Positions 13,264 to 19,506 of a stretch of 64,000 nt of DNA are shown one piece after another (position 1 is the stretch's first letter; each line of letters starts with the position of its first letter). Source of the DNA: an uncultured Fibrobacteraceae bacterium (GTDB lineage Bacteria; Krumholzibacteriota; Krumholzibacteriia; LZORAL124-64-63); the NCBI GenBank assembly GCA_964461255.1, contig CAYWTR010000015.1, positions 6,983-70,982 on the forward strand. Reading direction: 5' to 3'. The position numbers and the translations under genes are program-made. Below the pieces are notes generated by a model that was given only the letters and a program-made list of their open reading frames with translations, did no database searches and was not told the origin of the DNA.

Positions 13264-13602
13264 CTAGTGGTCGCAGACGTTCTCGCCCTGGCGCAGCGTG
13301 CCCGCCAGGTAATCGGCCACAAGCCGCTCGGGCGCTTCGGCCGGGGCGCCCACCATGACCTCGATGCCCTGCGCCGCGAAGAGCTCGCGCGCTCGCTGCC
13401 CCATCCCGCCGGCGATGATCACGCTCGCCCCCTGCTGCGCCAGCCAGGGCGGCAACAGACCAGGCTGATGCGGCGGGGCGGGAATGTCCTCGCGCGCGAG
13501 CACGCGCTGCGCGGCGGGATCGACATCGAGCAGGGCGAAGCTGGCGCAGTGGCCGAAATGCAAGGCCAGCTTGCCGTCGGCGAGCGGGATGGCGATGCGC
13601 AT
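13264..13602 (-). CDS. NifX/NifB-like Fe-Mo cluster-binding family protein (DUF134)
   Basis: MRIAIPLADGKLALHFGHCASFALLD ... VIIAGGMGQRARELFAAQGIEVMVG. RBS caaggagaacggacagATG. Confidence 0.75.
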   Translation of the reverse strand: MRIAIPLADGKLALHFGHCASFALLDVDPAAQRVLAREDIPAPPHQPGLLPPWLAQQGASVIIAGGMGQRARELFAAQGIEVMVGAPAEAPERLVADYLAGTLRQGENVCDH

Positions 13603-13659
13603 CTGTCCGTTCTCCTTGATTGATGTGATCCTGCGGCCGCCGCGGCGGCCGGACGCGGG

Positions 13660-14559
13660 TCACGCCGCCGCCGCGCCGTCCACCAGGGACAACACGCGAC
13701 GCCAGACCCGGCGAATGTCCTCCGCGGAGGGGGTCTCGATCTCGACGACGGCGCGCGCCGCCAGTTGCGCGCGGGTCACACCCGCGTCGTAACGGATTCG
13801 CCCGACCGGCACCGCGCCCGCCGCCAGCGCCCGCGCCTCGATGCGCTCACTCAAGGCGGGCGAAAGATCCCACTTGTTGACGCAGACCGCCGCGGGCAGC
13901 CCGAAATGGCGCGCCAGCGACAGCACGCGCGCCAGGTCGTGATCGCCGGCAACCGTCGGCTCGGTCACGACCACCACCAGCGAGGCGCCCGTGACCGAGG
14001 CGATGACCGGGCAGCCGATTCCCGGCGGCCCGTCCACGAGCACGAGCCCGCGCTGCTGCGCCTCCGCCAACCGCCGCGCCTCCCGCCGCACAGTCGACAC
14101 CAGTTTGCCCGAGTTCTCGGCGGCGATCCCAAGGCGCGCGTGCACCATGGGACCGCTGCGCGTGTCGGAGACCATCCATTCCCCGCAAAGGCGCTCGGGG
14201 AAATCGATGGCCTGCGCCGGGCAGAGCCGCACGCAGAGACCACAGCCCTCGCAGGCGATGGGATCGACGGCGAAGATGGGCGCGCCCTGCTCGCCGGCCG
14301 CGACGCGCATGGCGTCGAATCGGCAGTGCGCCAGGCAGTCGCCACAGCCGGTGCAATCAGCCGGTCGGATGATCGCCTCGCGGCCGCTGTGGAAAGGCCG
14401 GCGCGCGCGCAGGTGCGGCTCCAGCACCAGATGCAGGTCGGCCGCGTCGACGTCGCAGTCGGCGACGACCGCATCCCCGCTGAGAATGGCGAACGAAGCG
14501 GTCAGGCTGGTCTTGCCCGTGCCGCCCTTGCCGCTGATGACCACGATCTCGCGCATCAC
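13660..14559 (-). CDS. MinD/ParA-superfamily P-loop ATPase with inserted 2x[4Fe-4S] ferredoxin domain (COG1149-type)
   Basis: Walker A GKGGTGKTS. Two Cys clusters, CTGCGDCLAHC and CEGCGLCVRLCP, inserted into the ATPase fold. Confidence 0.8.
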   Translation of the reverse strand: MMREIVVISGKGGTGKTSLTASFAILSGDAVVADCDVDAADLHLVLEPHLRARRPFHSGREAIIRPADCTGCGDCLAHCRFDAMRVAAGEQGAPIFAVDPIACEGCGLCVRLCPAQAIDFPERLCGEWMVSDTRSGPMVHARLGIAAENSGKLVSTVRREARRLAEAQQRGLVLVDGPPGIGCPVIASVTGASLVVVVTEPTVAGDHDLARVLSLARHFGLPAAVCVNKWDLSPALSERIEARALAAGAVPVGRIRYDAGVTRAQLAARAVVEIETPSAEDIRRVWRRVLSLVDGAAAA

Positions 14560-17098: not shown

Positions 17099-18484
17099 CT
17101 ATCCCGGGCCGCCGCGCGACCGCCCGTCGCCGGGCGGCAGCTCCAGTCCCAGCCGGCGGAGCTTGCGGAACAGGGTGCTCTTGTGGATGCCGAGTTCGCG
17201 CGCGGCCGCTTCGCGGTGGTAGGCGTTGCGCTCCAGCACGCGGCGGATCGTCTGCATCTCCAGCAGCTCGACGGCGGTGTGAAGCCGCGGTTCGCCGCCG
17301 CCGCTGGCGGCCGGCCGCGTCAGCTCCTCGGGCAGATGCTGCAGGTCGATGGCGCCGTCGCGGCACAGGATGAAGGCGCGCTCGATCGCGTTCTCCAGCT
17401 CGCGCACGTTGCCGGGCCAGTCGTGGGCCATCAGCAGGGACAGCGCCTGCGCGGAGAGCCCGCTCACGTTGCGGCCTTGCAGGCGGTTGAAGCGGGCGAT
17501 GAACTGCTCGGTCAGCAGCGGGATGTCCTCCTTGCGGCAGCGCAGAGGCGGCAGCTGCAGGCGCACGACGTTGACGCGGTAGTAGAGATCCTCGCGGAAG
17601 GCGCCCTGCCGGACCGCCTCCGCCAGGTCGCGGTTGGTGGCCACGACGACCCGCGCGTCCGCCCGCTCCGAACGCGTGCCGCCCAACGGCTCGTACACCC
17701 GCTCCTGCAGCACCCGCAGCAGCCGCACTTGCAGCGCCGGGCTGATATCCCCGATCTCGTCCAGGAACAGGGTGCCGCCGCGCGCCTGCGCGAAGCGGCC
17801 CGGCTTGTCCCGCGACGCCCCCGTGAAGGCGCCTGCCTTGTACCCGAACAGCTCCGACTCCAACAGCGTGTCGGGCAGCGCGCCGCAGTTGACCGCCACG
17901 AAAGGCCGTTCGCGCCGTGGGCTGAGCGCGTGGATGGTGCGCGCCAGCAGCTCCTTGCCCGTCCCCGTCTCTCCCAGGACGAGCACCGTGCTCGGACTGG
18001 CCGCCACCGCCGGCAGCACCTCGAACAGCCGCTGCATCACGGGGCTGTGGCTGACCAGATCGCCGGCGCGCGCCCGGCCCTCCAGCTCGCGGCGCAGCGC
18101 TTCGATCTCGCTCAGGTCGCGGAAGGTCTCCGCGCCGCCGACCACCCGTCCGCGCGCATCCCGCAGCACGGCGGTCGACACGCTGATGGGCACGCGACTG
18201 CCCTGGGCATCGATGATGTAACCGGTGCGCCCGATGATCGGCTTGCCGGTCTTGAGGGTCCGTCGCAGCGCGCACTCCGCCTCGCACATGCTGCAACGGA
18301 ACACCTCCGAGCAGAGACGTCCCAACGCTTCTGCGCGCGGGATGCCCGTGATCACCTCGGCCGCGCGATTGAACCAGGTGATGCGCCAGTCCAGGTTGAC
18401 GGTGAAGACGCCGTCCGAGATGCTCTCCAGGATGGCGGCGGTGGGAGAGGGCGCGGGAGGCGCCGCCTTGCGTCGTGCGGTCAT
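17099..18484 (-). CDS. sigma-54-dependent transcriptional activator (PAS sensor, AAA+, Fis HTH), paralog of the 3814-5118 gene
   Basis: GETGTGKE, canonical GAFTGA (FGYKAGAFTGA), GGTLFLDEI, HTH ARELGIHKSTLFRKL. PAS with conserved Cys motif (CSEVFRCSMCEAEC). Start MTARRK at 18484; the longer ORF upstream is a read-through artefact. Confidence 0.85.
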   Translation of the reverse strand: MTARRKAAPPAPSPTAAILESISDGVFTVNLDWRITWFNRAAEVITGIPRAEALGRLCSEVFRCSMCEAECALRRTLKTGKPIIGRTGYIIDAQGSRVPISVSTAVLRDARGRVVGGAETFRDLSEIEALRRELEGRARAGDLVSHSPVMQRLFEVLPAVAASPSTVLVLGETGTGKELLARTIHALSPRRERPFVAVNCGALPDTLLESELFGYKAGAFTGASRDKPGRFAQARGGTLFLDEIGDISPALQVRLLRVLQERVYEPLGGTRSERADARVVVATNRDLAEAVRQGAFREDLYYRVNVVRLQLPPLRCRKEDIPLLTEQFIARFNRLQGRNVSGLSAQALSLLMAHDWPGNVRELENAIERAFILCRDGAIDLQHLPEELTRPAASGGGEPRLHTAVELLEMQTIRRVLERNAYHREAAARELGIHKSTLFRKLRRLGLELPPGDGRSRGGPG

Positions 18485-18510
18485 GGCGCGGCCGTCGCGG
18501 CCGCCTCCTC

Positions 18511-19506
18511 CTAGAACTGCTTGGGCGCCTCGGGCTTGTTGGCCACGATCTTCTCGATCTCCTCCAGCACGGGCGCGGTCAACCGCGGCAGCACGCGCAG
18601 GGCGTCCAGGTTCTCGCGCAGCTGCTCTAGCCGCGACGCGCCCAGGATGACGGTGCTGACGCGCGGGTTGACCAGGCACCAGGCGATGGCCAGCTGCGCC
18701 AGCGTGCAGCCCAGCTCGGCCGCCACCGGTTCCAGCGCGGCGGCGGTGCGGATCCGCGCGCGGCCCTTGTCCGACAGCACATGCTCGCGCAGCCATTCGT
18801 AGCCGGGCAGGGTCAGGCGCGAACCGGCGGGGACACCGTCCTTGTACTTGCCCGTGAGAATTCCGGCGGCCAGCGGCGACCAGGTTGTCAACCCCAGGCC
18901 GGCCCCCTCGCAAAGCGGCAGGTATTCCCGCTCGACCCGCTCGCGATGCAGCAGGTGATACTGCGGCTGTTCCATCGCCGGCGGCGTCAGGCCGTACTGC
19001 CGCGCTGCGCCATGGGCCTCCTGGATCTGCTGCGCGCTCCACTCCGACGTCCCCCAGTACAGCACCTTGCCCTGCCGCACCAGCTCGTCCATCGCCCGCA
19101 CCGTCTCCTCGATCGGCGTGCTCAGGTCGGGGCGATGGCAGAAGTACAGATCGAGATAATCCAGCTGCAGCCGCCTCAGCGCGGCGTCGCATGCCTCGCG
19201 CACGTGCTTGCGGTGCAGGCCGCGCTGCGTGGGCCGCTGGCCGCCCCAGTACACCTTGCTGGACACGCAGTAGGTGTCCCGGCCCCACCCCAGCCGCGCG
19301 AGCGCGCGGCCCATGATCAGCTCGCTCTGGCCGTCGGCGTAGACCTCGGCGTTGTCGAAGAAATTGACGCCGGCGTCGTAGGCCGTCTTCATGCAGGCGG
19401 CCGCGCCCTCGTCGTCCAGCTGCGCGTGGAAGGTGACCCACGAGCCGAACGACAGGGCGCCCAGCTTCAGGCCGCTGCGCCCCAGGTTGCGGTAGGGCAT
19501 CTCCAT
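18511..19506 (-). CDS. Aldo/keto reductase, Kv-beta-subunit-like family
   Basis: MEMPYRNLGRSGLKLGALSFGSWVTF ... typical AKR N-terminus and (alpha/beta)8 motifs. The 27-nt gap to the downstream regulator suggests co-transcription. Confidence 0.8.
   Translation of the reverse strand: MEMPYRNLGRSGLKLGALSFGSWVTFHAQLDDEGAAACMKTAYDAGVNFFDNAEVYADGQSELIMGRALARLGWGRDTYCVSSKVYWGGQRPTQRGLHRKHVREACDAALRRLQLDYLDLYFCHRPDLSTPIEETVRAMDELVRQGKVLYWGTSEWSAQQIQEAHGAARQYGLTPPAMEQPQYHLLHRERVEREYLPLCEGAGLGLTTWSPLAAGILTGKYKDGVPAGSRLTLPGYEWLREHVLSDKGRARIRTAAALEPVAAELGCTLAQLAIAWCLVNPRVSTVILGASRLEQLRENLDALRVLPRLTAPVLEEIEKIVANKPEAPKQF

Follow-up and report, generated by a model that had tools for sequence, protein, structure and literature searches.

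In this study, we report the analysis of a gene cluster at positions 13264-19506 of a 64,000-nt stretch of genomic DNA (contig CAYWTR010000015.1 of assembly GCA_964461255.1; the whole stretch is referred to below as the window), and describe it as a very probable orp-type operon together with its cognate OrpR-type regulator, named after the ORange Protein (ORP) complex genes of Desulfovibrio vulgaris. A first-pass annotation, made from the sequence alone, had placed eight co-oriented minus-strand genes in this interval, and all eight were found there:

18511..19506, minus strand: Kv-beta-type aldo-keto reductase (AKR; PF00248 and TIGR01293)
17099..18484, minus strand: OrpR-type PAS/sigma-54 activator, 461 aa (Pfam PAS_9, Sigma54_activat, AAA_lid_14 and HTH_8)
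16263..16913, minus strand: tailed NifX-like gene, the first of the operon, with a PF02579 domain (Pfam), a Gly/Arg linker and a Cys-rich ribbon
15852..16217, minus strand: DUF5320 protein, 121 aa (PF17253, E = 2.9e-23)
15392..15754, minus strand: ORP/Orp8-like single-domain PF02579 protein, 120 aa (Pfam E = 1.6e-21)
14556..15395, minus strand: ATPase A, Orp4-like, MinD/ParA-type with a ferredoxin insert
13660..14559, minus strand: ATPase B, Orp3-like, MinD/ParA-type with a ferredoxin insert
13264..13602, minus strand: stand-alone Di-Nase-type PF02579 protein, 112 aa

The GC content of the window is about 70%. Most junctions in the cluster had been described as 4-nt ATGA overlaps; only two of the seven overlap (ATGA at 15392-15395 and GTGA at 14556-14559), and the five remaining intergenic gaps measure approximately 24, 185, 45, 97 and 57 nt. 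A scan for promoters and terminators detected neither a sigma-70 promoter nor a minus-strand terminator within the cluster, and an Rfam scan of positions 12500-20000 returned no RNA element. The label "DUF134", which the first-pass annotation had given to the NifX-like proteins, had to be replaced: the corresponding profile (PF02001) had no match at E ≤ 0.01 in any of the eight cluster proteins, and the three NifX-like proteins belong to PF02579 (Nitro_FeMo-Co). The count of such domains held, with three of the four in the window lying in the cluster and the fourth, fused to DUF1847, at 2041-3081.

Genes DVU2103-DVU2109 of D. vulgaris have been described as the orp genes (PMC3897727, PMC6345978, PMC8359166). 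In that organism the ATPases are Orp3 and Orp4, each carrying two [4Fe-4S] motifs; Orp5 denotes a small Fe-S protein and Orp8 the orange protein, and in Orp9 (MrpORP) an Mrp P-loop domain is fused to a PF02579 domain termed "Di-Nase". Transcription of the genes proceeds from sigma-54 promoters that depend on integration host factor (IHF) and the activator OrpR (DVU2106) (PMC3897727), and MrpORP hands Fe-S clusters to Orp3, Orp4 and Orp8 (PMC6345978). We put the probability that the cluster in the window is an orp-type operon with a cognate OrpR-type regulator at roughly 85%. The kind of system is already known through the Desulfovibrio orp genes, and what is new is a copy of it in a bacterium outside the sulfate reducers. 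The first-pass annotation had called the cluster uncharacterised and its gene combination without assigned function, and in this it was mistaken, as a homologous orp/OrpR system has been published and partly characterised. Its central proposal, that ATP drives a system for Fe-S or metallocofactor assembly or hand-off and that a redox-sensing PAS sigma-54 activator controls it, fits the published work on Desulfovibrio orp; what fell away was the framing as uncharacterised, the DUF134 label and the inclusion of the AKR gene.

Related loci (designated L004-L083) were obtained by a PAS-domain alignment scan of one genome per species, which gave at least 590 relatives, of which the best 80 loci were examined and annotated with the window proteins. 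Neighbour counts were made over the 54 loci with at least 6.5 kb of sequence downstream of the regulator. Homology, motif conservation, synteny and the geometry of the promoter and its upstream sites were all determined in this analysis.

The regulator consists of a PAS sensor, an AAA+ domain with a GAFTGA motif and a Fis-type helix-turn-helix, and shares with OrpR this three-domain layout as well as a position immediately upstream of the genes to be controlled. Its PAS domain carries the signature C58-S-E60-x3-C64-x2-C67-x3-C71. The redox sensor of OrpR is a [4Fe-4S] cluster held by the PAS domain, for which C52, C61, C65 and an Asp/Glu at position 54 have been implicated (PMC8359166), and the spacing of C58, E60, C67 and C71 is identical to that of C52, E54, C61 and C65 of D. 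vulgaris OrpR. The shared pattern, C-x-[DE]-x6-C-x3-C, was kept in all of the 120 best database homologues (73-81% identity). The additional cysteine, C64, is a feature of the window regulator that does not belong to the OrpR signature, and was present in only 14 of these 120 relatives. OrpR has been stated to be seemingly restricted to the delta-Proteobacteria. The subfamily of the window regulator was found in Acidobacteriota, Eisenbacteria, Zixibacteria, Omnitrophota, Fermentibacteria, Ignavibacteria, Planctomycetes and others, and is therefore not confined to that class. Full-length identity of the regulator was 62-80% (L004-L083), even in Acidobacteriota, Omnitrophota and Desulfobacterota, which is unusually high for an enhancer-binding protein (EBP) and points to strong constraint or horizontal spread.

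Between the regulator and the tailed NifX-like gene lies the 185-bp gap, in which the following elements, including two predicted upstream activating sequences (UAS), were located:

17084..17099, minus strand: predicted UAS 1, GTCTCatatccGCGAC, overlapping the regulator stop codon, 134 nt upstream of the -24 element
17051..17066, minus strand: predicted UAS 2, GTAGCaataacGCGAC, 101 nt upstream of the -24 element (distance to site 1, 33 bp)
16981..17023, minus strand: AT-rich stretch containing AATCAA, ~26% GC in a region of 72% GC
16950..16965, minus strand: candidate sigma-54 promoter CGGCGCG-ATCC-ATGCT = CGGCGCGATCCATGCT, with -24 GG and -12 GC

The distance from the regulator stop codon to the candidate promoter is 134 nt, and a further 37 nt separate the promoter from the ATG at 16913. 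A site of the form TGGCAC-N5-TGCW was present approximately 125-145 nt after the regulator stop codon in about 50 related loci. The pattern GT[AC]GC-N6-GC-N-AC occurred at 33 sites in 51 upstream regions, compared with 0.055 in shuffled sequences, and the sites cluster at -135 and -103, a spacing of 32 bp. Only two matches to GTMKC-N6-GCGAC were present in the entire 64 kb of the window, both of them here, at -134 and -101. A trough in GC content at -60 to -30, between the UAS and the promoter, was conserved across the 51 loci, and by analogy with Desulfovibrio the AT-rich stretch is a possible bending or IHF-type site. As judged from sequence, the conserved synteny, UAS and -24/-12 promoter support a single regulated unit.

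Both ATPases contain a deviant Walker A motif, GKGGTGKT, and an inserted, intact pair of CxxCxxCxxxC motifs. The first-pass annotation had named degenerate ferredoxin inserts as a finding that would speak against its proposal; the Walker A motif and both ferredoxin motifs were retained in 33/33 homologues of ATPase A and 33/33 of ATPase B (66/66). The core of the ATPases is closest to archaeal MinD (TIGR01969; PDB 1ION and 1G3Q). The deviant Walker A motif of the type GKGGxGK[ST] and the P-loop core are shared with MinD/ParA and Mrp/NBP35 proteins (SIMIBI class), but the window ATPases differ from both in a ferredoxin domain of about 55 residues with two [4Fe-4S] motifs after the P-loop region. 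A structure match search found no ferredoxin insert of this kind in any solved structure. The CxxC bridging motif of Mrp/NBP35 is lacking, and a single cysteine in switch II is found instead. Switch II reads DAPPGTSCP in ATPase A and DGPPGIGCP in ATPase B (14900-14925 and 14010-14035; D-x-PPG-x-x-C-P), which places the cysteine seven residues past the Walker B Asp, a spacing that we take to equal that of the NifH cluster ligand Cys132. The motif was kept in 58/66 ATPase homologues, in the paralogue-specific forms PPGTSCP and PPGIGCP. ATPase B has an amphipathic C-terminus (...IRRVWRRVLSLV / ...IRRVWRRVLSLVDGAAAA) with a hydrophobic moment of 0.98, and it resembles the C-terminus of Orp3, as encoded by the published primer for the end of DVU2103 (...QRFNGVWNQLLALVAA).

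The four small proteins of the operon can be compared with the D. vulgaris set to differing depth. The closest solved structure to the ORP-like protein was 2WFB, 'ORP' (E = 1.7e-24 over 110 aligned residues); its gene has a GTG start codon preceded by the ribosome-binding site GGAAGGAG. The Di-Nase gene product is 58% identical, in a gapless alignment, to residues 376-487 of DVU2109, the C-terminal domain in a supplementary alignment, and contains the motifs HFGHC, PAPPHQPGLLP (of the PPPHxPG type) and a terminal CDH. The DUF5320 protein has a Gly/Arg/Trp-rich N-terminal half with one cysteine (GYC), its first 83 residues containing 25 Gly, 13 aromatic residues, 8 Arg/Lys and 11 Pro, followed by a coiled-coil-like C-terminal helix. 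It is probably the counterpart of Orp5 (DVU2105), as judged from its first residues: 119/120 of its homologues begin with MPxGDxTGP, and the start of DVU2105, as read from a published cloning primer, is MPYGDG. In the tailed NifX-like protein, a PF02579 domain with an MPGC motif is followed by a 76-residue Gly/Arg linker (44 Gly, 11 Arg/Lys, no acidic residue) and by the ribbon CxCPxCGx3PHx2GxPCx4CPxCG; tail and ribbon are conserved, with two CxxC motifs in 38/62 homologues. In three related loci only (L010, L015 and L038), the Gly/Arg tail of the NifX-like protein embeds MPRGDGTGP, the signature of the DUF5320 N-terminus, as if the two were fused.

Taken as a whole, the cluster and the D. vulgaris orp genes share an adjacent PAS sigma-54 activator, an orange-protein-type PF02579 protein, a small DUF5320-type protein, a paralogous pair of P-loop ATPases with two [4Fe-4S] ferredoxin motifs apiece, an Orp9-type Di-Nase domain bearing HFGHC, PPPHxPG and CDH, and a -24/-12 promoter whose palindromes lie far upstream, across an AT-rich region. 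The order DUF5320, ATPase A, ATPase B corresponds to orp5-orp4-orp3; the correspondences of DUF5320, ATPase B and the gene order to Orp5/Orp4/Orp3 are suggested by short termini and order, not by full alignments. The arrangement differs in other respects. The D. vulgaris orp genes form two divergent operons, whereas the window genes are co-linear and run in one direction, and the Di-Nase domain, fused to an Mrp/NBP35 P-loop in D. vulgaris, is encoded in the window by a separate 112-aa gene without the Mrp half. The operon's first gene, with its long Gly/Arg tail and Cys-rich ribbon, is unlike the D. vulgaris prototype, and the host of the window is probably Krumholzibacteriota-like, whereas the prototype belongs to the Desulfobacterota.

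The same regulator with its gene order is repeated in dozens of genomes, counted at species level, that represent more than ten phyla. The best 80 loci came from Desulfobacterota, Geobacter, Syntrophales, Acidobacteriota/Aminicenantes, Eisenbacteria, Krumholzibacteriia, Zixibacteria, Fermentibacteria, Omnitrophota, Ignavibacteria, Planctomycetes, TA06, Raymondbacteria and Chrysiogenales. The following genes were found after the regulator, on the same strand:

45/54 loci: tailed NifX-like gene, the most constant neighbour
32/54 loci: DUF5320
31/54 loci: ORP-like gene
28/54 loci: both ATPases
20/54 loci: Di-Nase gene

The downstream genes generally keep the order seen in the window, and in ten loci the tailed NifX-like gene and DUF5320 alone follow the regulator. 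The comparison of the 54 loci thus shows co-occurrence far beyond chance, and not the chance association that the first-pass annotation had named as a counter-argument. Median identities to the window proteins were 72% for the regulator, 68% for the Di-Nase gene, ~64% for the ATPases, 59% for the ORP-like gene, ~48% for the tailed NifX-like gene and ~47% for DUF5320. The AKR gene, which had been counted as a member of the cluster, was found beside the regulator in 0/80 related loci and is therefore only a local neighbour, for which the gap of 24 nt to the regulator leaves local co-transcription possible. In two Syntrophaceae loci (L001:13977-15187 and L002:4910-6120), Zn_ribbon_8 and radical SAM genes lie between the two ATPase genes, and the operon is flanked by Fur-FeoA-FeoA-FeoB and two molybdopterin oxidoreductases.

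By analogy with OrpR, the cluster is probably activated at low redox potential by the adjacent sigma-54 activator. In the mechanism that we propose, Fe-S sensing by the PAS domain, dependence on sigma-54 and IHF, complex formation and Fe-S transfer are carried over from the work on Desulfovibrio, and all that concerns the physiological role is inferred. The PAS domain would hold a redox-sensitive [4Fe-4S] cluster through C58, C67 and C71 and possibly, as a fourth ligand, E60 or C64. At low redox potential the active regulator would bind the palindromes at 17084-17099 and 17051-17066, and with the DNA bent over the AT-rich stretch it would open the sigma-54 promoter at 16950-16965. One transcript would then carry six genes, encoding the tailed NifX-like protein, DUF5320, the Orp8-like protein, the Orp4/Orp3-like ATPases and a free Orp9 C-terminal domain. 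The products would be expected to form a complex in which small proteins with labile clusters of the metal-sulfide or Fe-S type surround a MinD-type ATPase heterodimer, each ATPase with two [4Fe-4S] clusters (four per heterodimer), and the ATPases would spend ATP on taking up, keeping or handing over such clusters while the cell grows strictly anaerobically. A rise in redox potential would inactivate the regulator and so end the synthesis of these oxygen-fragile proteins.

Several observations weigh against identifying the cluster as an orp-type operon with a cognate OrpR-type regulator. The palindrome of D. vulgaris OrpR, GGGCGYRTTTTGCGCCC, is not present in the intergenic region of the window, and the palindrome predicted for the window regulator has a different sequence; D. 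vulgaris OrpR also has GAFTDA where the window regulator has GAFTGA. As these two features differ, the sequence comparison indicates that the window regulator could represent a sister subfamily of OrpR and not a strict orthologue. The candidate promoter agrees with the -24/-12 consensus at 9/12 positions, and a sigma-54 promoter called from the window alone was rejected, this score being no better than that of chance matches in so GC-rich a window; it is credible because its position matches that in about 50 related loci. The strict Escherichia coli IHF consensus, WATCARNNNNTTR, was found in only 2/51 loci and is not enriched, so that involvement of IHF is suggested by analogy with Desulfovibrio only (PMC3897727). 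The Di-Nase gene aligns with positions 265-365 of the MrpORP model NCBIfam NF041136 at 125 bits, below the cutoff of 450, and has Ala where the published CxHFGHCE motif begins with Cys. Of a complete MrpORP/Orp9 (Mrp P-loop plus Di-Nase) only the Di-Nase half was found: the Fe-S donor half of Orp9, an Mrp/NBP35 P-loop domain, is missing from the cluster and from the rest of the window, and the window also has no third deviant Walker A motif. Lastly, the literature itself goes no further than "putatively cell division" for the role of the ORP complex.

Three other explanations of what the proteins do were considered. The IssA protein of Pyrococcus furiosus is a store for iron and sulfur in the form of thioferrate and combines an IPR003731 domain with a cationic, Gly-rich tail (PMC5524996). 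The first gene of the operon has the same architecture, a NifX-fold domain followed by a cationic, Gly-rich and probably disordered tail, and the Gly/Arg/Trp composition of the DUF5320 N-terminus is close to that of the published IssA tail. On this basis the tailed NifX-like protein and DUF5320 might nucleate and wrap an anionic, thioferrate-like polymer that the ATPases load or mobilise, giving redox-gated storage of iron and sulfur and not hand-off to particular targets. The constancy of these two genes as partners of the regulator, including the ten loci in which they alone follow it, and the Fur-FeoAB genes adjoining one Syntrophaceae locus, are in keeping with such a store. We nevertheless consider it unlikely, since the globular domain of the first gene is only marginally like solved NifX-fold proteins and has no match to MTH1175, the IssA-type reference, to which the ORP-like gene is nearer. 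Its tail is poor in aromatic residues and terminates in a conserved Cys-rich ribbon, which has no counterpart in IssA, and the gene shows no specific relationship to the IssA clade and lies, unlike IssA, inside an ATPase-bearing, sigma-54-controlled operon. The resemblance is one of composition and not of demonstrated homology. DUF5320 was also considered as a detached IssA tail, and this was rejected, as PF02579+PF17253 fusions numbered 0/120 among its top homologues, all of which are single-domain. As a broader variant, the core of the regulon would be the tailed NifX-like protein and DUF5320, and not the orange protein or the ATPases. Both have cationic, Gly-rich segments that are probably disordered and resemble the tail with which IssA binds thioferrate; the pair would form a redox-gated store and dispenser of Fe-S polymer or clusters, with the ATPases as its loading and unloading motor. 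We regard this as a long shot; if true, the store and dispenser would be used by anaerobes in more than ten phyla.

The ATPases might instead serve mainly in positioning or cell division, with the complex localised at the pole or septum in the manner of MinD/ParA and the clusters acting as redox sensors and not as cargo. Their MinD-like core and the amphipathic helix at the end of ATPase B agree with this, as do the morphological defects of D. vulgaris orp/OrpR mutants, the polar location of MrpORP and the MinD-like membrane-targeting helix proposed for Orp3/Orp4 (PMC6345978, PMC8359166). Such a role appears doubtful for the window proteins, as neither the window nor the related loci showed MinC/MinE or other division genes, and the conserved partners are all metal-sulfur-binding proteins. 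The retention of both ferredoxin motifs in every ATPase homologue, and of the switch-II Cys in most, argues for redox or cluster chemistry as the core activity of the ATPases. It is highly improbable that the PF02579 proteins serve a nitrogenase or nitrogenase-like enzyme as carriers of FeMo-cofactor precursors of the NifX/NafY type, as the Pfam domain name ('dinitrogenase iron-molybdenum cofactor') and the annotation of homologues in transcriptome papers (PMC10533852) would have it. Their best specific matches are the orange protein and the MrpORP domain, not NifX/NafY, and nifHDK, nifEN and nifB were not found in the scanned window ORFs or in three Pfam-annotated related loci. The absence of nitrogenase genes noted in the first pass was borne out, with no NifH-type P-loop and no nitrogenase family among the scanned window ORFs (52.8-58.3 kb was not Pfam-scanned).

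For annotation, genes of the PF02579, COG1149 and DUF5320 types found in such a context are better described as orp-type than as nitrogenase-related or unknown. The orp genes have been studied almost only in Desulfovibrio, and in the loci compared here regulator, gene order and control-region spacing are preserved with unusual fidelity across many phyla of anaerobes. The most constant targets of the regulator are the tailed NifX-like protein and DUF5320, and these comparative constraints are offered for working out the role of the ORP complex.

A second OrpR-like module, with a paralogous PAS-EBP and a PF02579 protein, was identified at 77-5118 of the window:

77-1612, minus strand: CCG/Fer4 HdrD-like protein
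2006-2021, plus strand: strong sigma-54 -24/-12 site, TGGCACGCCCATTGCG
2041-3081: PF02579+DUF1847 fusion
3151-3537: small ORF
3658-5118: second PAS-EBP, with C-F-D-x6-C-x3-C and GAFTDA

Repeats containing GCGAC are located at ~1790-1830. The module may represent a regulon of its own, under a paralogous Fe-S PAS activator. In a Krumholzibacteriia metagenome-assembled genome (L064:6585-10592), the second module and the orp-like operon are immediate neighbours, the module proteins being 78% (second EBP), 74% (Hdr-like) and 51% (NifX-DUF1847) identical to those of the window. This adjacency suggests a functional link between the module and the orp-like operon, and the shared genes give a hint of the taxon from which the window comes.

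Positions 1-6000 of the window have a GC content of 0.60-0.66, below that of the rest (0.68-0.75). A further sigma-54-like match, TGGCGCGACGGATGCT at 42569-42584, lies within an ATP-grasp/CoA-ligase/GNAT gene and is probably due to chance. In keeping with an FCB-group-like organism, three large secreted-type proteins (19521-23129, 31477-32856 and 62357-64000) end in an FlgD_ig domain, and one of them also contains Sortilin/BNR repeats.

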